A stretch of DNA of 64,000 nt from Mycobacteriales bacterium (GTDB lineage Bacteria > Actinomycetota > Actinomycetes > BP-191), in assembly GCA_046590575.1 (NCBI GenBank), contig JBKJUS010000169.1, forward strand, positions 818 to 64,817, given 5' to 3'. The notes under the pieces were generated by a model. That model was not told where the DNA came from, did no database searches, and saw only the letters and a program-made list of their open reading frames with translations. Below, one piece after another: positions 9,679 through 53,080 of the stretch. The first letter of the stretch is position 1, and each line of letters opens with the position of its first letter. Made by a program: the position numbers and the translations under genes.

Positions 9679-10866
9679 ATGTCGCACCCCCACGCGCACG
9701 GTTCGGCGCACGACGCACCGCCCGCCCCGCCGGAGATCCGGCGCCTGCTCGCGCTGGCGGTCGTCCCTCTCCTGCTCGCGACGTTCGTCGGGCTGGTCGT
9801 GCTCTGGCCACGCGGCGCGGGGCCGGCGATCGGCGAGGGCATCGGGGTGGCCGCGGACCTCGTGCCCGCGACGGTGCGCGCCCGCGAGGTGGTGCCGTGC
9901 GACGACACCCCGGCTGACGACGACGCTGAGGTCACCTGCACCCTGTTGGAGGTGGAGATCACCGAAGGGGTCGATGACGGCCAGGTGATCGCGCTCGACT
10001 TCGTCGAGAGCCCGCGCACTCCCTCGATCGCTGAGGGCGACAAGATCGTGCTCGGCTATGAGCCGGAGGCCGAGCCGGGGAGCGAGTACTTCTACGCCGA
10101 CCGACAGCGGGGTCGGCCGCTGCTGCTGCTGACCGCGATCTTTGCGCTTGCGGTCCTCGCGCTCGGCCGATGGCACGGTCTACGCGCCCTCGGCGGACTC
10201 GCGGTCAGCCTCGTCGTTCTCGTCGCCTTCGTGCTCCCGGCGCTGCTCCGGGGCAGCAACCCGCTTGCCGTCGCCGTGGTCGGCGCCGCGGCCATCATGG
10301 TCGTCGCGCTCTACCTCGCCCACGGGATGACAGTGCGTACGACGATCGCGCTGCTCGGCACGCTCGCCAGCCTGGCGCTCACCGGCGTGCTCGCGGCGAT
10401 CTTCGTCGCCGGGGCACGATTCACCGGGCTGGCCAGCGAGGAGGCGACGTTCCTCAACGCCGTCGCAGGGCAGGTCGAACTCGAAGGACTCTTGCTTGCC
10501 GGAATCATCATCGGCTCACTCGGGGTCCTCGATGACGTCACCGTGACGCAGGCCTCCGCGGTGTGGGAGCTGCACCTGGCCAATCCGACGTACCGGGCCC
10601 GAGAGCTCTACACCGCGGCGCTGCGGATCGGCCGCGACCACATCGCCTCGACGGTGAACACCCTGGTGCTCGCCTACGCCGGAGCCTCGCTCCCACTGCT
10701 CGTGCTCTTCTCCCTGGCCAACCGCGACCTCGGTGACGTGCTCACCGGCGAAGTCGTCGCGCAGGAGGTCGTGCGGACGCTGGTCGGCAGCATCGGGCTG
10801 GTGGCCTCGGTGCCGCTCACCACCGGGCTCGCGGCGTGGGTGGCCAGCCGCTCGCCAGCGGGTTAG
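9679..10866 (+). CDS. YibE/F family membrane protein
   Basis: N-terminal soluble domain plus multi-TM C-terminus typical of the YibE/F family. Confidence 0.65.
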   Translation: MSHPHAHGSAHDAPPAPPEIRRLLALAVVPLLLATFVGLVVLWPRGAGPAIGEGIGVAADLVPATVRAREVVPCDDTPADDDAEVTCTLLEVEITEGVDDGQVIALDFVESPRTPSIAEGDKIVLGYEPEAEPGSEYFYADRQRGRPLLLLTAIFALAVLALGRWHGLRALGGLAVSLVVLVAFVLPALLRGSNPLAVAVVGAAAIMVVALYLAHGMTVRTTIALLGTLASLALTGVLAAIFVAGARFTGLASEEATFLNAVAGQVELEGLLLAGIIIGSLGVLDDVTVTQASAVWELHLANPTYRARELYTAALRIGRDHIASTVNTLVLAYAGASLPLLVLFSLANRDLGDVLTGEVVAQEVVRTLVGSIGLVASVPLTTGLAAWVASRSPAG

Positions 10867-11852
10867 GGACGCGCGGTCGGGATCGGGTTGCTGCCGCTGC
10901 TCGACGAGGGCGATGCGGACGACGACGACGACGGCTTGGGCGCCGGCGTCGGGCTCGGCTTCGGAGCGGCCGGGCTTGGCGACGGGGACGGCTTGGCTGC
11001 GGGGCTCGACTTGGGAGCGGCACTGGCCGAGGACTCTGCCTTGGCCGAGGGGACCGGCGCGATGGTCGACACCACTGCGGGCGGAGCAACTCGCTTGAGC
11101 TTGCGCACCAGCCGTGCCACGTCCGCGAGGACGCCCGCGCTGACCGACGACTTGTCGACGACAAACAGTCGCTGCTCCTCGCGGATGAGCTCAGCGATCA
11201 TCTCGGCCACTTCCGGGTCACCCTCTGCGTGCTCCGCGATGAGCGTGTCGAGGGTGGCGTGCAGCTCGGTGGCGGCCACGGTGATGTCGGCCGAGGAGGC
11301 GGAGCGGATGATCTGACCGGTCAGAGTGCTCAGCTGCTCGTCTGCGAGGGCGAGCGCGACAGCCTCGGTGGACGGAGCGCCGTCCCTCAGGCCCGGGGAG
11401 GTGACCGTGATGCCGCCGCCGACCAGAGCGACCAACGCGGCGGCCGCAGCCACCAGGCGTGCCCGGCCGACCAGGCGCTCGCTGCGCGCCTTTCGGCCGG
11501 CGGAGATCTCGTCGACCTGCGGTCGCAGGTCCGGACCGCTCAGGTGGGAGAGCATGCGCTCCTGGAAAGCAGCCAGCCCGGCGCGCTCGCCGTCGAGCAC
11601 GTCGGCCACAAGGCCGAGCTCGTCGGCATCGGCCGCGGCAGCGGCAATGATCATGTCGGTCTCGAGCGCGAGCCGGAAGTCGGCCACTTCCCGCAGGACC
11701 TCGTAGACAGGGGCACCCGCCTCCTGGGCGAGGGCCACGATGCGGGCCGCGTCACGCTCGGTTGAGCGCGGAGCCGGCACGTGCTCGCCCGAGCGCAACA
11801 GCCACGACGGCAGGGCGGGCTGCGCCTCGCCGCGGTGCCGTCGGTCACGCAC
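10863..11852 (-). CDS. single-pass membrane protein with Pro/Ser/Ala-rich C-terminal tail (anti-sigma/DUF5667-like architecture)
   Basis: GAGGAG RBS plus GTG at 11852. Central TM helix (LVAAAAALVALVGG). C-terminal PS-rich low-complexity region (SPAAKPSPSPSPAAPKPSPTPAPKP). Confidence 0.45.
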   Translation of the reverse strand: MRDRRHRGEAQPALPSWLLRSGEHVPAPRSTERDAARIVALAQEAGAPVYEVLREVADFRLALETDMIIAAAAADADELGLVADVLDGERAGLAAFQERMLSHLSGPDLRPQVDEISAGRKARSERLVGRARLVAAAAALVALVGGGITVTSPGLRDGAPSTEAVALALADEQLSTLTGQIIRSASSADITVAATELHATLDTLIAEHAEGDPEVAEMIAELIREEQRLFVVDKSSVSAGVLADVARLVRKLKRVAPPAVVSTIAPVPSAKAESSASAAPKSSPAAKPSPSPSPAAPKPSPTPAPKPSSSSSASPSSSSGSNPIPTARP

Positions 11853-11954
11853 TGGGAATCTCCTCGGTCGGGTGGTCAGGAGAGCCTTTCGCCGAACGTG
11901 CGGCTCATTCCTTCCTTTGTGACACAAATCACCAGCTCGGCGGTCTGAGCGTCA

Positions 11955-13102: not shown

Positions 13103-13908
13103 CCGTGCGCGCGGCGCGCGACGACCTCGGATTGGCGGTCGCGGTGCCACGTGAGGTGCACCGAATCGTGTCGATCGTGCCGTCGCTCACCGAGACCGTC
13201 GCCTCCAGCGGTGGGGCACATCGGCTGGTCGGGGTCACCGACTGGTGCACCCACCCGCCGGGCGTGGTGGCCGGGCTGCAGCGGGTAGGTGGAACCAAGA
13301 ACCCGGACATCGCGGCGATCATCGGTCTCGCGCCCGATCTCGTGATCGCCAACGAGGAGGAGAACCGACCGGCTGACCTCGCGGCGATGCGCGCCGCCGG
13401 TCTTGCGGTCTGGGTGACCGCCCCGGAGACCGTGTCCGCGGCCGTGACCTCCCTAGGGCGGTTGCTCGCCGTGTGCGGACTCGGCGACGGCGGGCGGTCC
13501 TGGTACCGCGACGTCGTGCAGGCCTGGCCGGTTGTGGCCGCGCCCGCCGTACGCGGTCGCGCTGTTGCCTTCATCTGGCGCCGTCCGTGGATGGTGCTGG
13601 GCCGCAGCACCTTCGCCGGCGACGTGCTGCGCCAGCTTGGGGTCGACAACGCCTACGCCGGCCACGCGGACCGGTACCCAGCCGTCGAGCTCGATGACGT
13701 ACGCCGGCTCGGCGTCGACCTGGTCGTGTTGCCGGACGAGCCCTATGCCTTCTCCACCTCCGACGGACCGGAGGCCTTCGCCGGTTGGAACGTGCCCGTG
13801 GCGCTCGTGTCGGGCCGGCATCTCACGTGGTACGGCCCGTCCCTCGCCGACGCTCGGGACGTGCTGACCGCGCAGCTCGCGGCCGCGGTCGTCCCGGCCT
13901 TCCCTTAG
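13099..13908 (+). CDS. periplasmic binding protein, BtuF/FhuD-like (cobalamin or iron-chelate SBP)
   Basis: Class III SBP features (helical-backbone receptor). Translationally coupled to the upstream reductase gene. Confidence 0.6.
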   Translation: MTVRAARDDLGLAVAVPREVHRIVSIVPSLTETVASSGGAHRLVGVTDWCTHPPGVVAGLQRVGGTKNPDIAAIIGLAPDLVIANEEENRPADLAAMRAAGLAVWVTAPETVSAAVTSLGRLLAVCGLGDGGRSWYRDVVQAWPVVAAPAVRGRAVAFIWRRPWMVLGRSTFAGDVLRQLGVDNAYAGHADRYPAVELDDVRRLGVDLVVLPDEPYAFSTSDGPEAFAGWNVPVALVSGRHLTWYGPSLADARDVLTAQLAAAVVPAFP

Positions 13909-15179
13909 CAGTCGCGAGCGTCCTCGGCGCCGTTGCAGTCGTCGTTGCCCAGCCCGCCATCGACGTAATCGGCGCCGGCGCCGGCACTGATGTAGTCGTC
14001 GCCTGCCCCGGCCGAAATCCGGTCGTCTCCGGCGCCAGTGCGCAGCTCGTCCTTGCCGCCGAGGCTGCGCAGGCGATTGTCACCGTCTCCAGCGCTGACG
14101 TAGTTGTCACCGTCGCCGGCCTCGATGACATCGTCGCCGCTACCGGTACGGATCTCGTCTTTGCCGCTGCGGGCCGTCACCCGGTTGTCACCGTCGCCCG
14201 CGCTGACGTAGTTGTCACCGTCGCCGGACTGGATGATGTCGTCGCCGCTACCGGTACGGATCTCGTCCTTGCCTTCGCGAGTCGTGATGATGTTCTTTCC
14301 GTCGCCGGCGCTGACGTAGTTAGCGCCGCTGCCCGCGTCGATGGTGTCGTCGCCGCTGCCGGTCCGGATCTCGTCGTTTCCCTCGCGAGCGACTACCCGG
14401 TTCTTTCCGTCGCCGGCGCTGACGTAGTTGCTGCCCGCTCCGGTATCGACGATGTCATTGCCGCTGCCAGCGCGGATCTCGTCATTACCCTCGCGCGCCA
14501 GCACCCGGTTGCTGCCGTCGCCGGCGCTGACGTAGTTGTTGCCGACGCCGGTGTCGATGACGTCGTTGCCCGCGTCGCCGTAGATCGAGTCGTCGCCGCT
14601 CTCTCCGAGCATGCGGTCGTCGCCGTCGCCGCCCCGGATGTTGTCACCGTCACTCCCGCCGAGGAGGAGGTCGGCGCCCTCCTCACCGTGCAGGTCGTCG
14701 GCGCCGTCGCCGCCGAGCAGCTTGTCGTTGCCTTCGCCCCCGTAGAGCCCGCCCTCGTCACCGCCGATTCTTATCGGGTTGCTGCCGATGCCGATCGTGA
14801 TCGTGCCGCCGGTGGCCTCGTCGTCCCCGCCTTCACCGGCGAGCACGTCGTTGCCCTCACCGCCGCGCAATAGGTCCCGTCCGTCACCGCCGCAGATCAG
14901 GTCGTCTCCACCGAGGCCGTCGACAATGTCGTCGCCGTCGAGCGCGAGGATCACGTCGATTCCATTGGTGCCCTCGATCGTGTCGGTGTCCTCCGTGCCG
15001 ATGATCGTCGCCTTCTTGCCGAGGCAGGTCGGCGACGCGGCGAGGCTTGCCGAGGCCAGCAGCACGGGCGTGACCAGCAGGCCTGCAGCGGCCAGCCGAA
15101 GGCCGCGGGAGTAGGAAACAATGGGCACGACTGTCCTCCGGGGCTGGGCTGTCCGGACGTATCGCCGGCGGGTAAGCAA
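13905..15179 (-). CDS. secreted calcium-binding repeat protein (RTX/hemolysin-type GGxGxD-like repeats)
   Basis: Signal peptide, then a Gly/Asp-rich region. This is followed by about 4.5 tandem 32-aa repeats (NYVSAGDG.N....REG.DEIRTGSGDD.I..G.G.). Confidence 0.65.
   Translation of the reverse strand: MLTRRRYVRTAQPRRTVVPIVSYSRGLRLAAAGLLVTPVLLASASLAASPTCLGKKATIIGTEDTDTIEGTNGIDVILALDGDDIVDGLGGDDLICGGDGRDLLRGGEGNDVLAGEGGDDEATGGTITIGIGSNPIRIGGDEGGLYGGEGNDKLLGGDGADDLHGEEGADLLLGGSDGDNIRGGDGDDRMLGESGDDSIYGDAGNDVIDTGVGNNYVSAGDGSNRVLAREGNDEIRAGSGNDIVDTGAGSNYVSAGDGKNRVVAREGNDEIRTGSGDDTIDAGSGANYVSAGDGKNIITTREGKDEIRTGSGDDIIQSGDGDNYVSAGDGDNRVTARSGKDEIRTGSGDDVIEAGDGDNYVSAGDGDNRLRSLGGKDELRTGAGDDRISAGAGDDYISAGAGADYVDGGLGNDDCNGAEDARDC
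14010..14540 (-). repeat. about 96-nt tandem repeats, roughly 4.5 copies, inside the RTX-like gene
   Basis: Repeated nucleotide blocks such as gtcgccgctaccggtacggatctcgtc recur at about 96-nt spacing. Confidence 0.6.
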
Positions 15180-17619: not shown

Positions 17620-17779
17620 CGGCTCAGCCTACGACCGCGACAGCGGTGCCACCGATCGGGCGTCTTGCGGCCGTCCGGTGAACCAATCCGGCGCCGGGAC
17701 CGTATGTCGGATACCGACGCGGCAACTTCCCTGTGCCGCACCGGCCTTGACTAGCCCGTCGACGACCCAGGACCGATCG

Positions 17780-18016
17780 ATGAGCAAGCTCCGGATTTCC
17801 CGCGAGATGACACCCGACGAGGTGCTGGTCGAGCGTGCCCGCTCGGGCGACGACGTCGCTCTGGCCGAGTTGATCCTGCGGTATCGCGGCCATGAGTTCG
17901 GGGCGCTGCTGTGTGAGGCGATCCGGACCTACGAGTCTGGTGGCGACCGGCTCTTCGTCGAGCACCTGACGCCGGGGCGCCTAGGTCAGACCAGCAGCGA
18001 CGTCAGCGGGCAGTGA
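17780..18016 (+). CDS. small hypothetical protein
   Basis: 79-aa ORF with an ATG start. No recognisable domain. Confidence 0.2.
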   Translation: MSKLRISREMTPDEVLVERARSGDDVALAELILRYRGHEFGALLCEAIRTYESGGDRLFVEHLTPGRLGQTSSDVSGQ

Positions 18017-18413
18017 CGATCACGACGCCGGCCATGCCCGAGCCAGGCTTGCCCGGCGTAGATGCACCGCCATGGATCTTGCAGAAGTAGTAGTACTTGC
18101 CCGGCTTCGTGAAGGTCGTGCTGAACGACGTCGTTGTCGTGAGCCCGCACATCGTGATCGCAGAGCCGGCGCAGCTCGGGTGAGAGTCAAATGACTTGCG
18201 GTCGGTGCTGGTCACCGAGTGCGGTCGCACTGAGGTCGTGTCCCAGCGCCAGGTGACCGTCGCCTTGCCGCCCTTGAGCCCCACTGTCACGGACGGCGCG
18301 ACGAACACGCTGTCCTGGACTGAGACGGCCGCCCTATCCGCGGCGTGCGCCGAGGGGGCCAGAAGTGCCGGCGCGGCCAATAGTGATATCGCGAGGAGTC
18401 GAAAGCGGTTCAT
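18003..18413 (-). CDS. cupredoxin-like (plastocyanin/azurin family) secreted copper protein
   Basis: Signal peptide. C-terminal YYYFCKIHGG...M motif typical of a type-1 copper site. Confidence 0.55.
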   Translation of the reverse strand: MNRFRLLAISLLAAPALLAPSAHAADRAAVSVQDSVFVAPSVTVGLKGGKATVTWRWDTTSVRPHSVTSTDRKSFDSHPSCAGSAITMCGLTTTTSFSTTFTKPGKYYYFCKIHGGASTPGKPGSGMAGVVIVTAR

Positions 18414-18430
18414 GGGCGTGTCTTGTCTGC

Positions 18431-19105
18431 TCAGCGGATCCGGAAGACCTGGTCAGTCTCCGCCAGGTCGGTGCGCACTGCGTTGAGATCGATCTGGGGG
18501 GTCCCGTAGTAGGAGGGGACGGTGAGCACCTGGTGGCTGCTCGCGCGGAGGGCGCGCAGCTCCGTCCGGCTCGCACCGCGACCGGGAAGCATGCCGGCCG
18601 GCACGGTAATGCCGACGGTGGCCTTGTCGAGTTGGGCGGCTGGCAGCTCCTGTCGCGTCGTCATCGGCACGCCGTACAACCCCGGGCAGGTCTGCTCCAG
18701 CACGGTGCTCGCGGTGCCGATCCTCGGTAGCCGGGTCTCGGCAACCAGGCGGCAGCTGCCGACCGTGGCGCCGAAGCGCACGGCGGTGCCGGCGGCGAGC
18801 GGTGCCCCCAGCTCCACAGTCACCCGCAGGTCGCGGCCGGTCGCTTTGCCGCGAGTCTTCGGTCCGGGCGCGGAGTGCACGAGCACTCGAGTGATGTCGG
18901 CAGCTGCGGAGCTGCTCGGCCCGGCGTTGTGGTTGCCGACGCGATAGCCGTAACCCGACTGGTCGCCGGCACCGGTCTCCTGGTCGTTCACGTGGTTCGC
19001 ATCGCCGGCGATGTCAGCGAAGGCGAGGTGATCGCGGGCTTCGGCACCAGTAGCGAACATGCCGCCGACGAGCACCGTGGCGAGAACAGCAAGGCGCAGG
19101 GTCAT
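18431..19105 (-). CDS. secreted hypothetical protein
   Basis: Signal peptide MTLRLAVLATVLVGGMFATGAEA. No known motif. Confidence 0.45.
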   Translation of the reverse strand: MTLRLAVLATVLVGGMFATGAEARDHLAFADIAGDANHVNDQETGAGDQSGYGYRVGNHNAGPSSSAAADITRVLVHSAPGPKTRGKATGRDLRVTVELGAPLAAGTAVRFGATVGSCRLVAETRLPRIGTASTVLEQTCPGLYGVPMTTRQELPAAQLDKATVGITVPAGMLPGRGASRTELRALRASSHQVLTVPSYYGTPQIDLNAVRTDLAETDQVFRIR

Positions 19106-19676
19106 GTGCGCGTTCCTTAAGTCAGCAGGCCGGAAGTCCGGCAACGGGGGTGTGGAGGAGATTTCGACCTACCCACTGCAATTCCTGCTGGCCTGTCGCA
19201 CCCCGGCTAGAGGTAGGGGGGATGGGATTTCCCGGGGCGGTTACTCGTAGACGACTTCGGCCTTGAGCAGGTCGGCCTCGACCGCGGCATCGGCGGTGCC
19301 TGCGTGAGTGGCGGAGCTTGTCTGGCAGACGCCATTGACGCAGTACGTCGACGGGTTGCCGAGCGCGAACGCGTAGGCGTAGCTGTCGACGAGCAGGTGA
19401 CGTGGCAGGTCACCGGTGATGGTCACGACGATCGTCGCGGTCGCTGGCGGCGGGGTGGGCGAGGGGATGTCGTGAATGTCGTCTCGGACCCCGGCGGTGC
19501 GGCGAGGGAGCCGGCCGCGGGAACGAGAACCGCCGTGGCAAGCGGGATGAGGATGGCAAGGCGTGCGCGCATGTGGGCCGGTCTGGGACGAAGAGCGGAG
19601 TCAGGGTGCACCGACTTGAGCAGTTTGTCTGTCAGCCACCTGACACGAAGATCAGGCGACCCGAACCGGATGGTGG

Positions 19677-19692
19677 GTAACAGCAGCGAAAC
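19677..19692 (+). promoter_or_regulatory. GlnR-box-like site GTAAC-n6-GAAAC upstream of glnA2
   Basis: gtaacagcagcgaaac lies 23 nt upstream of the glnA2 start. It matches the actinobacterial GlnR a-site/b-site consensus gTnAc-n6-GaAAc. Confidence 0.4.
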
Positions 19693-19714
19693 ACAGCCGC
19701 ACTAGGCTCGGCGC

Positions 19715-21040
19715 ATGGGTAAGCAGCAGGAGTTCGTGCTCCGGACGATCGAAGAACGCGACATCCGGTTCGTCCGGCTGTGGTTCACCGACGTACTCGG
19801 CTTCCTCAAGTCGGTGGCCATCGCCCCGGCCGAGCTCGAGGGGGCCTTTGCCGAGGGCATCGGCTTCGACGGCAGCGCGATCCAGGGCTTCGCTCGGGTG
19901 CACGAGAGCGACATGCTGGCTCGGCCGGACCCGTCGACGTTCCAGATCCTGGCCACCCGCGGAGACGGTCCCGGCGTCGCTCGGATGTTCTGCGACATCG
20001 TGATGCCGGACGGCACACCGAGTGAGGCCGACCCGCGGTGGGTGCTGCGCCGCGCGCTCAACAAGGCGGCGGACAAGGGATTCACCTTCTATACCCACCC
20101 GGAGATCGAGTTCTTCCTCTTCAAGGACTCGACGGCGCCGGTGCCCGTTGACCACGCCGGCTACTTCGACCTCACACCGCACGAGGCCGGACACGACTTC
20201 CGTCGGCAGGCGATCACGATGCTGGAACGCATGGGCATCTCGGTGGAGTTCAGCCACCACGAGGTCGCGCCGGGCCAACATGAGATCGACCTGCGATACG
20301 CCGACGCGCTGACGACCGCTGACAACATCATGACGTTCCGTCTCATCATCAAGGAGGTGGCGTTGACTGCCGGCGTCTATGCCTCCTTCATGCCGAAGCC
20401 GATCAGCGAGCATCCCGGTTCGGGCATGCACACCCACCTGAGCCTTTTCGAAGGTGACCGCAACGCCTTCCACGACCCGAGTGACCCCTACTATCTGTCG
20501 AAGATCGGCAAGGCGTTCATCGCCGGTCTCCTGCGCCACGCTTCGGAGATCACCGCGGTCTGCAACCAGTGGGTCAACTCCTACAAGCGGCTCATCGCCG
20601 GCGGCGAGGCGCCCGTCCACGTGACGTGGGGTCACAACAACCGCTCCGCACTGGTCCGCGTGCCGATGTACAAGCCGCAGAAGGGCAACTCCACGCGCGT
20701 CGAGTTCCGGTCACCGGACTCCGCAGCCAACCCCTACCTGGCCTTCGCCCTGATTCTCGCGGCCGGGATGAAGGGCATCGAGGAGGGCTACGAGCTGCCG
20801 CCAGGGGCCGAGGACGACATCTGGGCCCTGTCCGACACCGAGCGTCGGGCGATGGGCTATGAGCGGCTGCCCACCTCGCTGTCCGACGCGATCCGCGTGA
20901 TGGAGAGCTCCGAGCTCGTCGCAGAGACCCTCGGAGAGCACGTCTTTGATTACTTCCTGCGCAACAAGAAGGCGGAGTGGGAGGAATACCGCCGCCAGGT
21001 CACCCCCTTCGAGCTCGACCGCTACCTTCCGCTCCTCTGA
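19715..21040 (+). CDS. glnA2: glutamine synthetase, GlnA2-type
   Basis: The N-terminus (EFVLRTIEERDIRFVRLWFTDVLGFLKSVAIAPAELEGAF) is near-identical to mycobacterial GlnA2. GS catalytic motifs are present throughout. Confidence 0.9.
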   Translation: MGKQQEFVLRTIEERDIRFVRLWFTDVLGFLKSVAIAPAELEGAFAEGIGFDGSAIQGFARVHESDMLARPDPSTFQILATRGDGPGVARMFCDIVMPDGTPSEADPRWVLRRALNKAADKGFTFYTHPEIEFFLFKDSTAPVPVDHAGYFDLTPHEAGHDFRRQAITMLERMGISVEFSHHEVAPGQHEIDLRYADALTTADNIMTFRLIIKEVALTAGVYASFMPKPISEHPGSGMHTHLSLFEGDRNAFHDPSDPYYLSKIGKAFIAGLLRHASEITAVCNQWVNSYKRLIAGGEAPVHVTWGHNNRSALVRVPMYKPQKGNSTRVEFRSPDSAANPYLAFALILAAGMKGIEEGYELPPGAEDDIWALSDTERRAMGYERLPTSLSDAIRVMESSELVAETLGEHVFDYFLRNKKAEWEEYRRQVTPFELDRYLPLL

Positions 21041-21307
21041 GTCCCGGCGAACCTGGAGCAGCGGGCTCTTTCGAATCCTCGTGACCTTGTGCAACGATGA
21101 TCGCTCGATCCGAGCCTGGCCGAGGACCCAGTACTTCCTGGCGGTCGCGAAGCTGGCGCGAACCCCCTGCAGCACTTCAGGCTCTCCAGTGAGGTGCGCC
21201 CAGGTCCATGGGTCGGTCGGCCGTGCTCCGCGGGCACCTTTTGCACGTCCAGCTTCCCCGCTGCAACCCGCACTAACCCGTCAAGTCCAGCAGAACCAGG
21301 GAGAACG

Positions 21308-23566
21308 ATGGCCAAGGCCGCCAACAGCAGCGCTACCTCGTCGCCGGAGCCGTCATCCGGCGCGAGGCTGCAGAATTTCAGCCGCTCTGCCCGCGCCTAC
21401 CTGAGGGAGCGCAAGCGGCAACGGGCCATCAAGCGCCGGACGTCGAACTCCCGCCTAGCCATCTTCCTGGTGATCACACTGCTCGGTCTTTTCGCGACCG
21501 TTTTCCTCGCGCTGCGCTTCCTCGGCGCAGACGCGGACGGGCGTCAGCTCACTCTGGGTGAGGTTCGGCTGCTGGCCGATCAGGGCCGGATCGAGACCGC
21601 GACGTTGCTGGATGAGGACGACCTCTTTGTCGGCCGCTTCGTGTCGCAGGACGACGCCGACGAGCGCAACGCGCCCATTCCCGTGGCGAGCGCCTCTGCG
21701 GCCCCGGTGGCGTCGGCCACGCCGGCGCCGGCCGCGAGCGCGAAGCCGGTCGTCTCGGCGTCTCCTGCCGCCAAGCCTGCACCGTTGCCGCTGACCAACC
21801 AGGTCCCCGTCGACTCGCCGGTGCGGAACGACGCCGCTGCGGGCGACTACTACGTCAACGTCTCGGGCAGCGGCTCGCTGACCCAGGGCTTGGAGCAGGC
21901 CTTGCGCGGCAGCACCACCGAGGTGGCCGTCGACGAGCAGGGCACCAAGCAGAACGTGCGCCTGCTCACGACGTTCTTGCTGCCACTGATGATCCTCGCC
22001 AACCTTTTCGCGATGCTCTTCACCCTCGGCAAGGGTGGCAGCTCGGCAATTGGCGATGTCATCAACTTCGGCTCGATTGGCAAGGGCAAGGCCAAGAAGG
22101 GGGCGAGCTACGTCACTTTCGAGGACGTCGGTGGCGCCGACGAGGCAGTCACTGAGCTGCGTGAGGTGCGGGACTACCTCACCGATCCGGCGAAGTACGA
22201 GGCACTCGGCGCTGCTCCGCCGAAGGGCGTGCTGCTCTTCGGTCCACCCGGCACCGGCAAGACCCTGCTCGCCAAGGCGGTGGCCGGCGAGGCCGGTGTG
22301 CCGTTCTTCTCCGTCGCAGGTGCGCAGTTCGTCGAGGCCCTCGTCGGCGTCGGCGCAGCTCGGGTACGCGACCTCTTCGAGCGGGTCCACGCGGCGGCAC
22401 CGGCGATCGTCTTCATCGACGAGCTCGACGCGGCCGGGCGTAAGCGCGGCACCGGTGGTGGTGGCGGCGGCTCGGACGAGCGCGAGCAGACGCTGAACCA
22501 GCTACTGGTGGAGATGGACGGGTTCGAGGTGTCCTCGGGCATCGTGGTGATCGGCGCGACCAACCGGCCCGACATCCTCGACCCCGCGCTGATGCGCCCC
22601 GGTCGCTTCGACCGGCACATCACCATCGAGCGGCCGGAGCAGGAGGGCCGGGAGCGGATCCTGCGGATCCACGCCAAGGGCAAGCCGATCGCGCCCTCGG
22701 TGGATTTCGCCTTCCTGGCTGAGCGCACCCCGGGCTTCACTGGCGCGGACCTGGCCAACGTGGTGAATGAGGCCGCGCTGCTCGCTATCCGCCAGGGCAA
22801 GGCGCTGGTCGAGCCGGCGGAGCTCGAGGAGGCGATCCAGCGGGTGCTCACGGGGCCCAAGCGCCGCGGCCGGCTGATGAGCAGCGACGAGCGTCAGCGC
22901 GCCGCGATCCACGAGAGCGGGCATGTGGTGGTCGCTGCGGCTGCTGGGCGGGTCGCCGACGTCGAGCGCGTGTCGATCCTGAGCCGGGGGAAGCAGCTCG
23001 CCACGACGACGTTGCAGTCCGACGCCGACGTCAGCTTGCTGTCCCAGACTGCGCTGCGCGGTCAGCTGGTCACCCTCCTCGGCGGCATCGCCGCGGAAAA
23101 CCTGATCTTCGGGGAGATGTCAACCGGCGGCGAGCAGGACCTGGAGCAAGCCACCGACCTGGCCCGGGACATGGTGGCCCGCTACGGGATGAGCCCGATC
23201 CTGGGCCCCGTCCGTCTCCTCGGAAAGGCCAGTGAGGCGTTCCTCGGCAACGACATCCCGCTATCCGATGTCTCCCCGGAGACCCGGGCCACGCTGGACG
23301 CGGAGATCCGCCGGTTCATCGCCGAAGCCCAGGACGAGGCCATGGAGCTGCTGTCGCGGCACCGCGCCACCCTCGACGGCCTGGCTGCCCGACTCGAGGA
23401 GGAGGAGACCCTCGAGGGCGAAGAGCTCCAGGAGGTGCTCGCCCCGATCGAGCGGGAGATGTCCCGGGAGAAGATCAGCCCCAACGGCCGCGCCGTCCGC
23501 CGTGCGCCGGCCACCCGCCGTACGCCGGCCACCCGGCGGGCACCCGTCAAGTCTGCTCGCCGATAA
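21308..23566 (+). CDS. FtsH-family membrane AAA+ zinc metalloprotease paralog
   Basis: AGGGAG RBS. TM1, a long low-complexity periplasmic loop, then TM2. Walker A GPPGTGKT, second region of homology (SRH) and HEXXH as HESGH. M41 peptidase-like C-terminus. Confidence 0.75.
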
Positions 23567-23659
23567 CCTCAACCCGGTAACGCCCGCAGGATCGCCCGCC
23601 CCGCCGTCGAAGGCTTATCGTCGACGGCGGGGTGCATTGCTACGGAGGACACGCAACCG

Positions 23660-26413
23660 GTGAGACCCACACACGCGCCGCGTCCCGCGCGCATCACGCG
23701 GATCCGCGCTGCTCTGCTCGCGGCGGTGGTCACGGTGCTCGCCGTGCCGATCGTGACCTCCCAGGCGCAGGTGGCCGCTCCCCGGTGTCCTGACCGCAAC
23801 CAAATCGTGCCGGTCGGTGGCAACGTCGCCCGCTGGGAGGCCATCGCCAAGCCTGCGTTCGACGTCGGCCCGCAGACCATGACGGCGTACGCCGTCCAGC
23901 CGACCGACCCATCGATCATCTATGTCACCAACGGCAAGACCGTCATGCGGACCTCCAACAGCGGATGCACCTTCGATGAGGTGCTCGAGCTGCGGCCCGA
24001 GGCGTCCGGCGATGTCGCGCTCTCGTCCGCCACGACGACGATCACATCGCTCGCCCTGCCCGAGCGCGGTTCTCCTCGCCGGGTCATCGCCACCGCCGTG
24101 GAGGTCGACGCCGGCGCCGGGCGGCCGCACGTCCTGCGCACCGACACGGGCAACAACGGCACCTGGGAGATCGCCGACGGCGGCCTACCCCCGGTGGGCC
24201 GGCCGGTCGACCTGCGAATCGCCCCCGGCGACGCGCGGGTCGTGTTCCTCTCCCTCCGCGCGGTCAGCGGCCTGGACGACACGCCGGTCGGTCCGATTCC
24301 GCCGATCGGTGGCCCCGCGCCGACGCCCAGCGGGCCGGTTGGCGCGCTCTATCGCAGCGGCAATGGGGGGCAGAGCTGGACCCAGGTGGCACAGGGCGAC
24401 CAGCTCGGTGGTGCGACGGTGCTCGACGACGTGGCGGTCAGCGACCTCAGCGCTGAGCGGGTCTTCGTGATCGCCGGGGGGGTGCTGCTCAGCTCGACGG
24501 ATGGCGGGGCGACCTTTTCCGACAGCGGTCTCACCCGCGCGCAGCAGACCTCCGGCGGATACCGGTTCACCACCCTGGACGTCTTCCAACAACGGATCTA
24601 CGCGTTCAGCAGCACTACGACCGCCGGCGGGCCGGCGGCTGTCCGCTCGAACGACAACGGGCGGACCTACTCTGCGGCGAAGGTGCCGTTCGTCGCCGAG
24701 TCCGCAGCGCACGGTTCGCGCGCCGGCGACGTGATCGTCGGCACCACGCTCGCCGATGGCACCACAGACGTCTTCGCGCTGTCCAACAACCGGTGGGTGG
24801 CCGTCACCCCGGCTCCTAACGCGGTGCCGTTCCGGGTGCAGATCGACCGCTCGCGGAGCGTGCGCTTCGGCCTGTCGACGGAGAAGATCTACCGGACCAT
24901 CGCGGACCGGTCCACGCCCGACGTGGCACCTCCGCCGATCAATGTGGACAACAACGCCGGCAACTTGGCCGGTGTGCGGCCACCGAGCCTGCTGCCCCGC
25001 AGCCAGACCGTGGTGCTCGACATCGGGCAGTCCAAACAGATCACGTACACGCTCCAGATCCCTCGTCGCCCCACCCCGCTCGACGTCTACATCGTGCTCG
25101 ACAACTCCGGCTCGATGATCGCCTTCATCGACGACCTGCGGGTCAACCTCGCCAAGGCGGTCAGCACGCTGCGGGCCAATGCGGTCGACGTCTACGCCGG
25201 CCTGGGTTACTACAAGTCGCTCACCAGCCCGCCGCTCTACGACCGACTGGTCGACGTCGGTCCGGTCAACCAGAACTTCTTCAACCAGCTCGCGACGCTC
25301 GATCCCAAGAAGACGACTGGCAACCAAGAGCCCATCCTCGACGCTCTCTACCAGAGCGCCACGGGTGAAGGCCGGTCCAACCTGACGTTCGCCGCCTTGA
25401 GCACCTGTGACATCGACCCGGGACTTGCCGGGTGTCAGATCCCGCGTAACAAGCAGGCAAACTTCCGCACCGACTCGCTGCGGGTGCTTCTGCACGCCGG
25501 CAACGAGGAGTGGGACCGCGAGCTCCAGGGCTCGCCCAGCTTCGCGCGGACGGCCGAGGCCCTGCGGAACCGGTCCATCAAGCACGTGGGCATCGCAGTG
25601 CTTCCGATCGCCCGTCGAGACATGCAGGACATGGCCCGGGCCACGGGTGCGCTCGCCGGTCCCGGAGGAGTCGACTGCAGCGGTGACGGCCGGGCGGACA
25701 TCGCCCAGGGCGAGCCCTTGGTCTGCACGGGCAACGGCGAGCTCGCCCGCACCCTGGTGCAGATCCTCAACGGAGTGACCGACGTACAGAACCTTCGGTT
25801 CTTCGCCCGTCGGCCCTCGCCGGTGCTCCGTGCGCTCGAGCCCACCCGGATCCTGCCGATCAACGTCAAGGCCGACAGCACGGTCACGCTGACCGCGACC
25901 GTGTCCTGCCTCGGCGTCGAGCCGGGGCAGTACGAGTTGAGCTTCGGGGCTGCGTTGCGCGAGGCCACGGTCGCTGAAGCGGGCGCGCTCGTCACGTGCG
26001 GCCTGTCACCGGCCGTCGTTGCGGGCGTGGCCGCACCACCTGCGGCGCCGCAGCAGCAGGCGGGTCCCGTCCAGCCGGCGCCCGCGCCCGTCCCGGCGCC
26101 AGCACCCGCGCCGCAGGTCAACCCCGCTCCGCAGTCTCAGGTGCAGCCGCAGATCAACACCCAGGTCAACGCCGGCACGGCCTTCGAGGAGCAGGAGCAG
26201 ATCCAGATCGCCACCGTCGGGGTCGATGTGCGCCAACGGGAGGAGCTGGCCATGAGTGCGCTCCCACTCGGTGAGCGGGACGACCCGGTGACCGCCGCCG
26301 CGACCGTCCTCGTCGGCGGGTCGCTGGTGATGTCGGCCTGCGTGGGTGTCGTGCTGGCCCAGCGTCGGCGTACGGCGACCGCAACCGTGACCGCACGCTC
26401 CGACCGCCGGTGA
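23660..26413 (+). CDS. secreted BNR/Asp-box beta-propeller plus VWA-domain protein with C-terminal TM anchor
   Basis: Signal peptide. Four Asp-box motifs (SNSGCTF, GNGGQSW, STDGGATF, SNDNGRTY). VWA MIDAS motif DNSGS (DVYIVLDNSGSM). Pro/Gln-rich linker and C-terminal TM helix. Confidence 0.65.
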   Translation: MRPTHAPRPARITRIRAALLAAVVTVLAVPIVTSQAQVAAPRCPDRNQIVPVGGNVARWEAIAKPAFDVGPQTMTAYAVQPTDPSIIYVTNGKTVMRTSNSGCTFDEVLELRPEASGDVALSSATTTITSLALPERGSPRRVIATAVEVDAGAGRPHVLRTDTGNNGTWEIADGGLPPVGRPVDLRIAPGDARVVFLSLRAVSGLDDTPVGPIPPIGGPAPTPSGPVGALYRSGNGGQSWTQVAQGDQLGGATVLDDVAVSDLSAERVFVIAGGVLLSSTDGGATFSDSGLTRAQQTSGGYRFTTLDVFQQRIYAFSSTTTAGGPAAVRSNDNGRTYSAAKVPFVAESAAHGSRAGDVIVGTTLADGTTDVFALSNNRWVAVTPAPNAVPFRVQIDRSRSVRFGLSTEKIYRTIADRSTPDVAPPPINVDNNAGNLAGVRPPSLLPRSQTVVLDIGQSKQITYTLQIPRRPTPLDVYIVLDNSGSMIAFIDDLRVNLAKAVSTLRANAVDVYAGLGYYKSLTSPPLYDRLVDVGPVNQNFFNQLATLDPKKTTGNQEPILDALYQSATGEGRSNLTFAALSTCDIDPGLAGCQIPRNKQANFRTDSLRVLLHAGNEEWDRELQGSPSFARTAEALRNRSIKHVGIAVLPIARRDMQDMARATGALAGPGGVDCSGDGRADIAQGEPLVCTGNGELARTLVQILNGVTDVQNLRFFARRPSPVLRALEPTRILPINVKADSTVTLTATVSCLGVEPGQYELSFGAALREATVAEAGALVTCGLSPAVVAGVAAPPAAPQQQAGPVQPAPAPVPAPAPAPQVNPAPQSQVQPQINTQVNAGTAFEEQEQIQIATVGVDVRQREELAMSALPLGERDDPVTAAATVLVGGSLVMSACVGVVLAQRRRTATATVTARSDRR

Positions 26414-26440
26414 TCGCGAGCCCTCGGTAGGCTCGCCGGT

Positions 26441-29400
26441 GTGGCGAGCGAAGGCACAGGTGCCGACGCACGGCTGACCCGACTCGGCTTCACCGACCCA
26501 CGTGCCGCGCGGGCGCTGCTCGGCCCGGATGGCCTCCGCCTGTGGGGCAGCGACGGGGCGGTCGACGCCGGAGCCGCAGCGATCCTCGCCGCGCTGGCGC
26601 ACGTCGCCAACCCTGACCTCGCACTCGGCGCGCTTGGCCGGCTGGTCACGGTCGTCCCGAAGCCGGCGGTTCTGCTGGCCGCTCTGCGGTCCTCCGCCGG
26701 CCTACGTGAACGTCTGCTGGGAGTGCTCGGCACCTCGACCGTGCTCGGTGACCACCTCGTGCGGCACCCGCGGAGCTGGCCGACGCTCGCGGACAACCGC
26801 ATCGCCGCCTCACGGCCCAGCGCTCTCGGTCTGCGCGAGCAGCTGCTCGCTGCCGTCGGCGCCGACGTCACTGCTCCGCTGCCGTGGGGGAGTGGTGCGG
26901 GGAGTCGGGCGTCCGGGGCCGGCGATGACGTGCTCGACGAGCTGCGCACGGCGTACCGGTCGGCGCTGCTGCGGCTAGCGGCGCGCGATGTCGCCGGCGG
27001 CATCGCTATCGACGACGTCGCCGCCGAGCTGGCCGACCTGGCCGCCGCAACGCTGGAGGCTGCGCTCGCTGTCGCTGTGGCCGCGATCGAGCCGGACGTC
27101 GAGCCGTGCCGGATCGCCGTCATCGGCATGGGCAAATGCGGTGGGCGCGAGCTCAACTACGTCAGCGATGTGGATGTCGTCTTCGTCGCGGAGGCGCTGC
27201 CGGGCGGAGACGAGGCGCGCGCCCTGCGCACGGCTACCAGGCTGGCGGAGGGCCTGATCAAGGCATGTTCGGCGACCACTCGCGAAGGCTCCATCTGGCC
27301 GGTCGACGCCGGGCTGCGTCCCGAGGGCCGATCGGGCCCGCTGGTCCGGACCCTGGCCAGCCACGCGGCGTACTACGAGCGCTGGGCGAAGAACTGGGAG
27401 TTCCAGGCGCTGCTCAAGGCGCGTCCGGTGGCCGGCGACCTCGCCCTCGGTCAGGACTACCTCCGGGTGATCGCGCCGATGGTGTGGTCGCAGGCGCCGC
27501 GACCGGATCTGGTCGCCGACGTCCAGGCGATGAAGAAGCGGGTGGAAGGCTCGGTCGCGCCGAAGGAGTCGGGGCGCCAGCTCAAGCTCGCGCCCGGAGG
27601 TCTGCGCGACGTGGAGTTCAGCGTGCAGCTCCTCCAGCTCGTCCACGGCCGGGCCGACGAGACACTGCGCGTGCGCAGCACCCTCGAAGGGCTCGAGCGG
27701 CTGGCCAAGGGTGGCTACGTCGCGATCGAGGATGCCGAGCGGCTGGCTGACGCTTACCGATTCCTCCGCGGGGTCGAGCACCGGCTGCAGCTCCAACGCC
27801 TCCGGCGTACCCACACCCTGCCGACCGAGCCGGCGGCCTTGCGGTGGGTGGCTCGCAGCATGGGGTTCCGTGACGGGGCGCGCGGCACGGCGACGGAGGG
27901 GCTGCTTGCCGAGCGCGCCCGGCACGCGGTCGAGGTGCGGCGCCTGCACGAGAAGCTCTTCTACCGCCCCCTGCTGACCGCGGTGGCGCGGCTGCCGGCC
28001 GATGCCATCCGGTTGGCGCCCGAGGCGGCCCGCGAGCGACTGGATGCTCTTGGCTTCGCTGACTCGGCAGGTGCGCTGCGTCACCTCGAGGCGATGACCG
28101 GCGGCCTGTCCCGGAGGGCCTCGGTCCTGCGAACCATGCTGCCGGTGATGCTCCCTTGGTTCGCGGCGGCGCACGACCCGGACAGCGGGTTGCTCGCCTT
28201 CCGCACGGTCAGCGAGCAGCTAGGCAGCTCGCCGTGGTTCATCGCTCTCTTGCGGGACTCAGAAGTAGTGGCCGAGCGGCTGGCCAGTCTGCTCTCGTCC
28301 AGCAAGTTCGTGGCAGACCTGCTTGGCCGTGCCCCGGAGGCGGTAGCCATCGTCGCGCGCGACGCCGAGTTGGCACCGCGGACGGCAGCCGCACTGCACG
28401 AGGAATTCGGGTCGGTGGTGGCCCGCCACCACGACGCGGAGGCGGCCGCAGCTGCGGTGCGCGGTCTACGGCGTCACGAGCTCCTGCGAGTCGCGTGCGC
28501 TGACCTGCTGGGAATGGTCGATGTCGACGGGGTCGGTCCAGCCCTGTCCGACGTGTCGGATGCGACCCTCGCTGCGACCCTCGACGTGGCCCAGCGCCAC
28601 GTCACGGCGGTCCGCGGCGCGCCGCTCGACGTACGTCTTGTTGTTGTCGGCATGGGTCGTCTGGGCGGGCGCGAGCAAGGCTACGGCTCGGACGCAGACG
28701 TGCTCTTCGTGCATGAGCCCATGGACGGTGCCGACGAGGCAGCTGCCGCGGCCACGGCGAAGAACATCGCCGAGGAGCTGAGGCGGCTGCTCTCGGTGCC
28801 ATCCCCCGATCCACCGCTCCTCGTCGACGCGGGTCTCCGTCCGGAAGGTCGACAGGGTGCGCTCACTTTGAGCCTGTCCGGCTATGCCCGCTACTACGCA
28901 GGTCGAGCCGCCGTATGGGAGGCACAGGCGCTTCTGCGCGCTCGGGTGGTCGCCGGTGACGCCGACCTGGGTAACCGCTTTTGCGAGCTCATCGAGCCGG
29001 TGCGCTGGCCCGAGTCGTTCAGTGACGAGAGCGTGACGGAGATCCGGCGAATCAAGGCCCGAGTGGAGACCGAGCGGCTGTCGCGCGGCGTCGACCGCCA
29101 CCGTCACACGAAGCTAGGTCCCGGAGCGATCGCAGACGTGGAATGGACCGTGCAGCTGCTGCAGCTGCGCTACGCGCACTCAACGCCGACCTTGCGTACC
29201 GCTTCCACGCTCGACGCTCTGGCCGCTGCTGCTGCGGCGGGGTTGATCCCGCCGGATGACGCAGACCTGCTCTGCACGGCGTGGCAAGCGGCGACCGCGG
29301 CGCGAAACGGGCTGACGTTGGTCCGTGGCCGCGCACACGACGTGCTGCCGGATGACGCGCGCACTCTGGCCGGGGTGGCGCGGGCAGTCGGCTACCCTGC

Positions 29401-29485
29401 CGGGAGCCGAGCGGACTTCCTCGACGGCTACCGGCGCGCGACTCGGCGCGCTCGCGCAGTGGTGGAGAGGGTGTTTTACGCGTGA
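26441..29485 (+). CDS. glnE: bifunctional glutamine synthetase adenylyltransferase/adenylyl-removing enzyme
   Basis: Two nucleotidyltransferase domains with GlnE-specific motifs. 1014 aa. Confidence 0.9.
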   Translation: MASEGTGADARLTRLGFTDPRAARALLGPDGLRLWGSDGAVDAGAAAILAALAHVANPDLALGALGRLVTVVPKPAVLLAALRSSAGLRERLLGVLGTSTVLGDHLVRHPRSWPTLADNRIAASRPSALGLREQLLAAVGADVTAPLPWGSGAGSRASGAGDDVLDELRTAYRSALLRLAARDVAGGIAIDDVAAELADLAAATLEAALAVAVAAIEPDVEPCRIAVIGMGKCGGRELNYVSDVDVVFVAEALPGGDEARALRTATRLAEGLIKACSATTREGSIWPVDAGLRPEGRSGPLVRTLASHAAYYERWAKNWEFQALLKARPVAGDLALGQDYLRVIAPMVWSQAPRPDLVADVQAMKKRVEGSVAPKESGRQLKLAPGGLRDVEFSVQLLQLVHGRADETLRVRSTLEGLERLAKGGYVAIEDAERLADAYRFLRGVEHRLQLQRLRRTHTLPTEPAALRWVARSMGFRDGARGTATEGLLAERARHAVEVRRLHEKLFYRPLLTAVARLPADAIRLAPEAARERLDALGFADSAGALRHLEAMTGGLSRRASVLRTMLPVMLPWFAAAHDPDSGLLAFRTVSEQLGSSPWFIALLRDSEVVAERLASLLSSSKFVADLLGRAPEAVAIVARDAELAPRTAAALHEEFGSVVARHHDAEAAAAAVRGLRRHELLRVACADLLGMVDVDGVGPALSDVSDATLAATLDVAQRHVTAVRGAPLDVRLVVVGMGRLGGREQGYGSDADVLFVHEPMDGADEAAAAATAKNIAEELRRLLSVPSPDPPLLVDAGLRPEGRQGALTLSLSGYARYYAGRAAVWEAQALLRARVVAGDADLGNRFCELIEPVRWPESFSDESVTEIRRIKARVETERLSRGVDRHRHTKLGPGAIADVEWTVQLLQLRYAHSTPTLRTASTLDALAAAAAAGLIPPDDADLLCTAWQAATAARNGLTLVRGRAHDVLPDDARTLAGVARAVGYPAGSRADFLDGYRRATRRARAVVERVFYA

Positions 29486-51655: not shown

Positions 51656-53080
<1,425 letters not shown>

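Follow-up and report, generated by a model that had tools for sequence, protein, structure and literature searches.

Within the FtsH family of membrane proteases, HflK and HflC interact through the FtsH periplasmic domain, and paraplegin, a member with a non-aromatic pore, assembles with AFG3L2 in mixed hexamers. Paraplegin has an Ile at the pore position, which has been described as a determinant of substrate specificity (PMC2734466), and the FtsH2 xenolog of Pseudomonas aeruginosa clone C is an accessory FtsH that degrades fewer substrates (10.1101/2023.06.19.545564). Among surface proteins, CglD of Myxococcus xanthus and a Trichodesmium homolog, whose betaI-like VWA domain with its MIDAS (metal ion-dependent adhesion site) was matched to integrin beta3, are the prokaryotic examples reported so far (10.1101/2023.10.19.562135). 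Here we analyse 64,000 nucleotides of a Mycobacteriales bacterium (GenBank assembly GCA_046590575.1, contig JBKJUS010000169.1, positions 818 to 64,817 of the forward strand; this whole stretch is called the window), in which an FtsH gene and the gene of an integrin-like surface protein stand together between glnA2 and glnE. Based on our results, we give roughly even odds (a probability of about 0.5) to the reading that the glnA2-glnE interval is a conserved two-gene membrane module, composed of a dedicated FtsH protease and an anchored surface protein that would be its client. The two genes are:

21308..23566, + strand: ftsH, complete, 752 amino acids, a paralog with Leu in the pore loop (Leu-pore), assigned by TIGR01241, Pfam, PDB matches and clade membership
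23660..26413, + strand: 917-amino-acid integrin-like surface protein, a predicted type-I membrane protein, assigned by an AlphaFold2 model, Foldseek, a PDB profile search and homologs

These two genes are also adjacent elsewhere. A homolog of the surface protein adjoins a Leu-pore FtsH gene in 23 of 28 assessable loci, and does so in none of about 50 canonical FtsH loci recovered. The count from the FtsH side was obtained by a scan of GTDB species representatives, followed by tblastn and clustering of open reading frames with a filter based on the GC content of third codon positions (GC3). The loci (designated by L numbers) fall into three unrelated contexts:

Context A: glnA2-(glutamine amidotransferase in some)-FtsH-VWA-glnE; the window, L002-L010, L030, L084
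Context B: FtsH-(small antisense open reading frame)-VWA-LVIVD-repeat proteins-glycogen genes; L011-L016, L019, L022, L096, L108
Context C: nuoL/M/N-nucleotidyltransferase-VWA-FtsH-M23 peptidase, with the order of the pair reversed; L017, L018, L021, L026

Across these loci the paired identities of the two proteins drop together, unequally:

FtsH 92-93%, surface protein 82-89%
FtsH 83%, surface protein 70%
FtsH 80%, surface protein 64%
FtsH 69%, surface protein 40%
FtsH 64%, surface protein 30-33%
FtsH 52-57%, surface protein 24-29%

The ectodomain of the surface protein thus diverges fast, from 89% down to 25% identity, as against 93% to 52% for FtsH. The linkage between the two genes is strong, and it is not obligate. 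The adjacency persists through three neighbourhoods, in one of which the two genes have swapped places, and neither chance nor co-expression alone accounts for this easily.

Judged from its sequence, the first gene encodes a catalytically intact FtsH. The protein scores 647.2 bits on TIGR01241, the NCBIfam FtsH equivalog (cutoff 600), matches solved FtsH structures in PDB (E 3e-146) and has Pfam matches to AAA (E 3e-43), AAA_lid_3 and Peptidase_M41 (E 4e-45). A preliminary description of this DNA had read here a complete FtsH with two transmembrane (TM) helices, an AAA module and an M41 domain, and a secreted, C-terminally anchored protein of 917 amino acids starting 93 nucleotides downstream; both were recovered, the former with its coordinates and all its features and with TIGR01241 above cutoff, the latter with its open reading frame, signal peptide and TM helix. 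The features of the FtsH protein are:

21308..21454, + strand: N-terminal cytoplasmic basic extension, residues 1-49, with a modelled helix at residues 18-42; typical of the VWA-linked FtsH clade
21455..22018, + strand: TM1 (residues 50-68), ectodomain (69-218) and TM2 (219-237), from a hydropathy scan and the AlphaFold2 model
21671-21841, + strand: Ala/Pro/Ser-rich insert of the ectodomain, residues about 122-178 (about 57 residues), with a predicted local distance difference test score (pLDDT) below 50
22229..22831, + strand: AAA module and lid (Pfam)
22241-22264, + strand: Walker A, GPPGTGKT
22328..22354, + strand: pore-1 loop FVEALVGVG, with Leu345 replacing the aromatic residue of the canonical FVEMFVGVG (alignment)
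22409-22432, + strand: Walker B, VFIDELDA
22556-22615, + strand: second region of homology
22874..23437, + strand: M41 zinc-protease domain (Pfam Peptidase_M41)
22910-22924, + strand: HESGH, residues 535-539
23123-23140, + strand: TGGEQD, with the Asp that is the third ligand

In an alignment of 48 homologs, the Walker A Lys, the Walker B Asp-Glu pair, the sensor Asn and both Arg fingers (K318, D371, E372, N419, R430, R433) are invariant, as are the zinc-protease residues H535, E536, H539 and D611, and also L345. Since the catalytic residues are invariant, selection maintains an active ATPase and protease. The preliminary description had also placed a low-complexity loop of 170 residues between the TM helices. 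The actual loop is about 150 residues long (69-218) and is a predicted folded ectodomain; low complexity is confined to residues of about 122-178. In the AlphaFold2 model (m032442520af4, built on 48 homologs, mean pLDDT 77), the parts that flank this insert form a compact alpha+beta domain of the FtsH type with a pLDDT of about 90. Although this domain with its insert is modelled, the window protein has no Pfam FtsH_ext match; its homolog P0022 has a precomputed PF06480 match. Likewise, HESGH in place of HEAGH does not set this protein apart, contrary to what had been suggested. Among 60 FtsHs the two middle residues of the HExGH motif are AG, SG, GG, IG, TG, MG, VG or LG, and we rejected HESGH as a diagnostic feature since this position varies among A, S, G, I, T, M, V and L.

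The signature of this FtsH subfamily, as read from the alignments, is the pore-loop Leu and not HESGH. The pore-1 residue is Leu in 33 of 33 clade members and Phe in 30 of 30 other FtsHs compared; the loop reads FVE[AS]LVG[VI]G in the window protein and all its close relatives, and FVE[ML]FVG in all other FtsHs recovered, the tilS-hpt-linked copies among them. Because paraplegin has Ile there, an aliphatic residue at this position has a precedent in the FtsH family. A phylogeny of FtsH homologs had been proposed as a check, and it returned a separate clade: in a neighbour-joining tree of 63 sequences and 438 columns, whose canonical set includes copies from Acidimicrobiia and Thermoleophilia metagenome-assembled genomes (MAGs), a long stem divides the 33 Leu-pore FtsHs from the canonical FtsHs recovered, and this split has a bootstrap support of 100/100. 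The N-terminal tail, basic (W/Y-x-LRRRR..KRK) and 40-50 residues long in VWA-linked members, has 6-13 residues in most canonical FtsHs, and the ectodomain has 105-168 residues in the Leu-pore clade versus 80-90 in canonical FtsHs. Within the clade, both the ectodomain and the N-terminal tail are longer in VWA-linked FtsHs than in members without a VWA gene. Pfam-confirmed tilS-hpt neighbours were seen next to canonical FtsHs only and never next to Leu-pore genes.

Two relatives carry both types of FtsH on one contig. In L033, a 9.7-kb contig of an Actinomycetota MAG, a 648-residue Phe-pore FtsH (FIELFVGLG) with a Pfam FtsH_ext match is followed 5 kb downstream by a Leu-pore FtsH that is cut by the contig end. 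A search with this Phe-pore FtsH led to L108 (GCA_030447315.1, JAUJPD010000003.1, 253,954 bp), in which positions 10001-11950 encode an FtsH_ext-type FtsH and positions 17768-19954 encode a Leu-pore FtsH. This Leu-pore protein has the loop FVESLVGIG, is 53% identical to the window FtsH over 703 residues and is followed by an 899-residue homolog of the surface protein (28% identity, MIDAS DTSDS), all three genes lying within 12 kb. Both FtsH types are also present within Acidimicrobiia/Acidimicrobiales MAGs. Given this coexistence in L033, in L108 and in these MAGs, we regard the Leu-pore subfamily as a paralog lineage, and from these relatives we infer that the organism of the window likely also has a canonical ftsH. 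The specialised paralog proposed in the preliminary description is therefore upheld by the separate clade and by the second FtsH on the contigs of two relatives; for the organism itself, the evidence covers the window. Taken as a whole, that interpretation is partly supported, its core being sound and some particulars mistaken.

Searches around this subfamily returned two further observations. At the P0399 locus, on a 1.44-Mb contig, there was no FtsH-VWA module within 10 kb. Six FtsH-like proteins of 1156-1173 residues (P0005, P0007, P0009-P0011 and P0013), found in MAGs of Actinomycetota and Thermoleophilaceae, reach about 1000 bits when compared with the FtsH of the window; they have many AAA-type Pfam matches and probably contain two AAA modules plus M41.

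The second protein of the pair resembles, in its sequence and its predicted structure, a single-chain integrin head: a propeller and a hybrid/betaI unit, with a stalk, TM helix and tail behind them. Strictly speaking, it falls outside the integrin beta family. Its features are:

23660..23767, + strand: signal peptide, residues 1-36, Sec-type, with its site between SQA and QV and a hydrophobic segment at residues 15-33; read from sequence
23789..24901, + strand: seven-bladed Asp-box (BNR) beta-propeller, residues about 44-414; in the model, residues 49-414 with about 28 strands and about 7 blades; profile matches
24986..25999, + strand: integrin-beta-like headpiece, a hybrid beta-sandwich (residues 443-470 and 709-780) with an inserted betaI/VWA domain (472-705); Foldseek and profile
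25100-25114, + strand: MIDAS DNSGS, residues 481-485
25127-25138, + strand: ..IDDL after the MIDAS
26006..26266, + strand: disordered Pro/Gln-rich stalk, residues 783-869, pLDDT below 50
26186-26212 and 26243-26257, + strand: juxtamembrane motif, EEQEQIQIA and then ELAMS, at the C-terminal end of the stalk
26300..26410, + strand: C-terminal TM anchor, residues 881-899, and Arg-rich cytoplasmic tail of 18 residues; hydropathy, model helix at residues 876-902

The AlphaFold2 model (mc68f25197b17, 24 sequences) has a mean pLDDT of 74, with most domains at 85-95. Compared with PDB through Foldseek, it returned integrin beta chains as 50 of the 50 top hits (E down to 7e-16, about 410 columns, TM-score up to 0.57 on the target), and the aligned span is the hybrid domain plus the inserted betaI domain. 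A family profile matched integrin beta-8, -1, -7 and -2 with E 4e-8 to 2e-5 over profile positions 408-555. Pfam support is weak: the window protein matches vWA_SIBA-E with E 0.002, and homologs have sub-threshold matches to Integrin_beta (PF00362). The VWA domain named in the preliminary description is thus part of an integrin-beta-type hybrid/betaI unit that had been missed. As for the MIDAS, a putative metal-binding site which had been called intact, the DNSGS is present, and the sequence DNSGSM...IDDL is one that we take to resemble DLSYSMKDDL of integrin beta3 (MIDAS plus the adjacent site, ADMIDAS); in the window's subclade, GN (N615) stands where the family consensus HATDE has its distal [ST]D. 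Four Asp-box repeats had been counted, and four such motifs are indeed found, at residues 98, 233, 279 and 330, three of which fit the strict pattern. Profile matches of the propeller, at E 2e-17 to 1e-6, include GH74 xyloglucanases (E 2e-17), sortilin (4e-7) and Ycf48, and homologs of the protein have PF02012 and PF15902. Six cysteines (C43, C103, C673, C689, C750 and C780) are conserved throughout the family, which fits an extracytoplasmic location. Neither the model nor the Pfam scan contained PSI, EGF or beta-tail domains, and there was no match to an SPFH (Band 7) domain in this protein, whose anchor is C-terminal. After the TM helix of residues 881-899 the sequence reads AQRRRTATATVTARSDRR. 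A sortase-type signal was considered and rejected: there is no LPXTG or LAXTG, and the motif, E-L-A-M-S, has no TG and stands 14 residues before the TM helix.

This architecture belongs to a large family. A word-indexed search gave 26 close homologs. When 1.84 billion representatives were scanned with HMMER, 3599 proteins passed E<=1e-30, and the top 150 of them all match over nearly the full length with more than 500 bits. Among 148 family representatives, three or more Asp-box-like motifs are present in 142, DxSxS after the predicted strand in 110 and a C-terminal TM helix in 135. The C-terminal end changes little: the juxtamembrane motif (QEQxQxQxA, about 10-20 residues, then E-[LY]-A-[MF]-[SV]) is kept together with the TM helix and the Arg-rich tail at 25% identity, the representatives included, and among members that are 25-35% identical overall Q849 and A851 are invariant while A864 and M865 are at least 90% conserved. 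On two metagenome contigs (L089:835-4432 and L094:3937-11664), two integrin-like paralogs lie close together, in tandem or convergent, with no FtsH in reach.

Both proteins of the window are intact, with purifying selection in their functional motifs, and both are membrane proteins with parts on either side of the membrane. In the module that we propose, they would meet at the membrane, the FtsH ectodomain lying beside the juxtamembrane motif and the AAA ring beside the tail. The enlarged ectodomain would recognise the conserved juxtamembrane motif, and the AAA ring would engage the Arg-rich tail and extract the anchored protein, either for quality control or for its regulated removal; the aliphatic pore loop may tune the FtsH paralog to a narrow clientele. 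We favour a relation of protease and client because FtsH is known to degrade membrane proteins from their cytoplasmic ends and because the pore loop that determines specificity is changed here.

Several observations weigh against this proposal. Whether the surface protein is a client or a regulator of the FtsH is a guess, and the contact between the two is putative. The C-terminal motif also occurs in family members without a neighbouring FtsH and may serve another purpose. The cytoplasmic tails are short (10-20 residues), and work in E. coli places such a length at or below what FtsH needs to start degradation. Five Leu-pore FtsH loci have no adjacent VWA gene (L001, L020, L023, L024 from Dormibacterales and L027 from Acidimicrobiales). 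Counted from the other side, FtsH is adjacent in 9 of 24 metagenome loci of the VWA family and clearly absent from about 10, the other contigs being too short. The co-conservation of FtsH with the VWA gene, whose absence in relatives was to count against the pairing, therefore holds as an adjacency in three contexts and in 23/28 loci, and not as an obligate one. The small antisense reading frame of context B separates the two genes, which accordingly do not always form one operon. Finally, no second ftsH was found within the 64-kb window, and a second copy was seen in the contigs of relatives only.

The main rival reverses the direction of control. The integrin-like protein would be an extracytoplasmic sensor or modulator of the FtsH paralog, comparable to HflK/C, and ligand binding at the MIDAS would alter the handling of other substrates, membrane or cytoplasmic, from the outside in. 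This is attractive in that conservation in the surface protein centres on the juxtamembrane motif, which is extracytoplasmic, that the FtsH ectodomain is enlarged specifically in VWA-linked members and that the cytoplasmic tail is short; the purifying selection in functional motifs of both proteins is compatible with it as well. We nevertheless consider it rather unlikely, as the three contexts share no further gene, for instance for an anti-sigma factor or a regulator, that could be a conserved candidate substrate, an SPFH domain is absent, and many family members have no neighbouring FtsH.

A second alternative, which we hold to be unlikely, is that these are simply co-located, co-expressed envelope genes whose products do not interact directly, the FtsH paralog having a general or other role, for instance in mixed hexamers with another FtsH. 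The incomplete linkage in both directions would be explained in this way. On the same side, paraplegin has Ile at the pore position (PMC2734466), and the FtsH2 xenolog of P. aeruginosa just has a narrower substrate range (10.1101/2023.06.19.545564). The adjacency speaks against this explanation, being kept in three unrelated neighbourhoods, including the reversed order, down to an FtsH identity of about 46-52%, and at no canonical locus. A further extension, in which the 917-residue protein is a prokaryotic integrin-like receptor that relays the binding of an external ligand to a dedicated AAA+ protease, giving outside-in signalling by regulated FtsH proteolysis, is speculative and, in our view, distinctly improbable.

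It is very unlikely that the gene is just the organism's housekeeping ftsH, moved to a place between glnA2 and glnE. In favour of this, the equivalog cutoff of NCBIfam is reached, the catalytic residues are all kept and the 64-kb window shows no other ftsH. Yet a long branch with 100/100 support separates the clade from canonical FtsHs, the actinobacterial MAG copies included; the pore aromatic is absent; the tilS-hpt synteny is never seen, the flanks here being glnA2 and the VWA gene; in L033 and L108, one contig carries a Leu-pore member as well as an FtsH of the Phe-pore, FtsH_ext type; and the contexts are variable, as for an accessory gene. As for the 'ternary' conflict systems of MoxR, vWA and FtsH (Kaur et al. 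2020), in which divergent vWA proteins, sometimes with beta-propellers, accompany FtsH-type AAA+ domains in actinobacteria (PMC7159879), and to which the double-AAA protein next to the FtsH of L001 might also point, it is hardly credible that the pair is a variant of them, since neither the window nor any of the three contexts contains a MoxR gene, this FtsH is an M41 protease with one AAA module that is bound to the membrane, the vWA protein is not cytoplasmic but secreted with a membrane anchor, and PADLOC yields generic AAA matches only.

Returning to the module of protease and client, the way in which its two genes are expressed may be influenced by a structure in the spacer between them:

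23599..23632, + strand: GC-rich hairpin with a 13-bp stem, within the 93-nucleotide spacer of ftsH and the VWA gene, from minimum free energy folding and relatives

The 106-nucleotide stretch that holds this hairpin has a minimum free energy of -47.4 kcal/mol (z = -2.96). The hairpin is the same in L004, L084 and L005, and in L002 a different sequence forms one of equal strength at the same place; it is absent from more distant relatives, whose spacers are 2-60 nucleotides long. It may act as an intercistronic stabiliser or as an attenuator and so determine how strongly the two genes are expressed relative to each other.

The genes on either side of the pair are:

19715..21040, + strand: glnA2-type glutamine synthetase, upstream (Pfam Gln-synt_N and Gln-synt_C, E 1e-128)
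26441..29485, + strand: glnE adenylyltransferase, downstream (two Pfam GlnE and two GlnD_UR_UTase matches)

Together with the pair, they make four co-directional genes across 19715-29485, separated by spacers of 267, 93 and 27 nucleotides in that order. In L002-L010 and L084, which are syntenic, the counterparts of the glnA2-type gene have 80-97% identity to it. The preliminary description had remarked that this interval holds unrelated secreted hydrolases in mycobacteria; at odds with this, we take it that in M. tuberculosis glnE (Rv2221c) adjoins glnA2 (Rv2222c), and that the hydrolases Rv2223c and Rv2224c lie beyond glnA2. A tie to nitrogen metabolism is not indicated, because contexts B and C are without glnA2 and glnE, and a nitrogen-metabolism role was rejected since the pair is found without either gene. 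The ATG at 21308 is the likely start of FtsH: a GGGAG Shine-Dalgarno sequence lies 5 nucleotides upstream, and this start agrees with the identical 752-residue database entry P0001 and with the homolog of L084, which has the same MAKA... N-terminus. Because the GC composition is even across the window (66-74%), there is no sign of a recent insertion. Scans for promoter and terminator consensus sequences gave nothing above shuffled sequence, a plasmid tblastn gave no match and the PADLOC defence scan gave generic AAA matches only. Among named relatives, the nearest are MAGs that bear the labels Mycobacteriales, Frankiaceae or Actinomycetota bacterium; no cultured organism was among the matches of any search, and all members are from uncultured Actinomycetota.

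Some neighbouring genes deserve mention in their own right. In the window, a second glutamine synthetase (51656-53080, - strand, 474 residues), probably glnA1, is 34% identical to the glnA2-type gene and lies 22 kb downstream of glnE, and a 424-residue protein (13905-15179, - strand) has 14 stretches of RTX (HemolysinCabind) nonapeptide repeats (E 3e-59) and a homolog (cluster c33) in L004 and L008. In context A, a class-I glutamine amidotransferase gene stands between glnA2 and the FtsH gene in L003:8961-9683, L007:8977-9702 and L084:2682-3398, where the window has its 267-nucleotide spacer. In the long-read MAG CAVXXT01 (L010:10001-17014), FtsH (in its M41 region) and glnE are each split into two reading frames, probably through assembly frameshifts and not as pseudogenes. 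The antisense reading frame of context B is conserved, encodes 80-89 residues and is located either between the FtsH and VWA genes or just upstream of them (L011:12148-12417, L019:9599-9841 and L108:19973-20224, all on the - strand); all three copies have sub-threshold matches to a BldD-like C-terminal domain (E 1e-4 to 5e-4). Secreted LVIVD-repeat proteins of 390-590 residues recur beside integrin-like members, whether FtsH is nearby or not (L088:1000-2202, L096:8093-11064, L103:3978-5753, L011:15249-19000), and may be a second partner of the integrin-like family. Two of the loci without an adjacent VWA gene have large proteins of their own. On the 1.86-Mb Joint Genome Institute (JGI) contig of L001 (10001-20604), the Leu-pore FtsH is followed by a 752-residue double-AAA (Cdc48-like) protein, a LuxR-type helix-turn-helix protein, a 968-residue protein without Pfam match and a 902-residue protein; this last one, 5.7 kb downstream of FtsH, has the same Asp-box propeller as the family and also its C-terminal motif and anchor, and lacks the VWA domain. 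In the Acidimicrobiales MAG of L027 (3155-9844), the VWA-less Leu-pore FtsH is preceded by a 2229-residue protein whose C-terminus likewise consists of a TM helix with a long tail rich in Arg.

In open-access papers and bioRxiv we found no account of the Leu-pore FtsH subfamily, of the propeller-hybrid-betaI family from actinobacteria or of a pairing between them. Paralogs of FtsH are already known, and so are VWA adhesins of bacteria. If the coupling is true, it would provide a natural pair of protease and client, or of protease and sensor, for the study of how FtsH selects membrane substrates and of the role of pore-1. In annotation, the label 'cell division protease FtsH', which stands for the housekeeping enzyme, should be avoided for Leu-pore genes, as should 'hypothetical protein' for their partners.

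Set beside canonical FtsH (E. coli FtsH/HflB and the T. maritima and T. thermophilus structures), the paralog described here has the same TM topology, AAA and M41 domains and catalytic residues, and its cytosolic part is 45-50% identical. It differs by Leu instead of Phe at pore-1, by a basic N-terminal tail of about 45 residues, by an ectodomain of 105-168 residues with a low-complexity insert, by the lack of a Pfam FtsH_ext match and of tilS-hpt linkage, and by its own clade. With FtsH2 and paraplegin/SPG7 it has in common that these are extra members of the FtsH family with altered substrate handling, the pore of paraplegin also being aliphatic (Ile); neither, however, is tied to an integrin-like surface protein, and FtsH2 differs mainly in the linker between membrane and cytoplasm. 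HflK and HflC, like the surface protein, are membrane-anchored, have large extracytoplasmic domains and are functionally tied to FtsH, but they are N-terminally anchored SPFH proteins, whereas the protein here is anchored C-terminally and has no SPFH domain. The MoxR-vWA-FtsH systems also bring vWA, beta-propellers and FtsH-type AAA+ domains together in actinobacteria (PMC7159879); theirs need MoxR, a double-AAA FtsH-type protein and effector components, none of which is present here.

The comparison with integrins is closer in the head than in the rest of the protein. As in the integrin beta headpiece, a VWA-type betaI domain is inserted in a hybrid sandwich, a DD pair comes after a DxSxSM MIDAS, one TM helix leads to a short tail, and a beta-propeller belongs to the same head. 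Unlike in integrin beta, there are no PSI, EGF or beta-tail domains and no NPxY in the tail, and the Pfam Integrin_beta match is sub-threshold; the propeller is of the Asp-box/BNR type and in the same chain, not an FG-GAP propeller from an alpha subunit, and the distal MIDAS Asp is Asn in the subclade of the window. If the assignment is true, the family, which is widespread in uncultured Actinomycetota, would join the Trichodesmium protein and CglD as the third prokaryotic group of beta-integrin-like proteins, and a much larger one, and would bear on the origin of the integrin headpiece. CglD, a lipoprotein of the outer membrane, has COMP-like and EGF-like parts and acts together with the Glt machinery for gliding, whereas the protein here, from Actinomycetota, is a predicted type-I protein of the cytoplasmic membrane that carries an Asp-box propeller and is paired with an FtsH.

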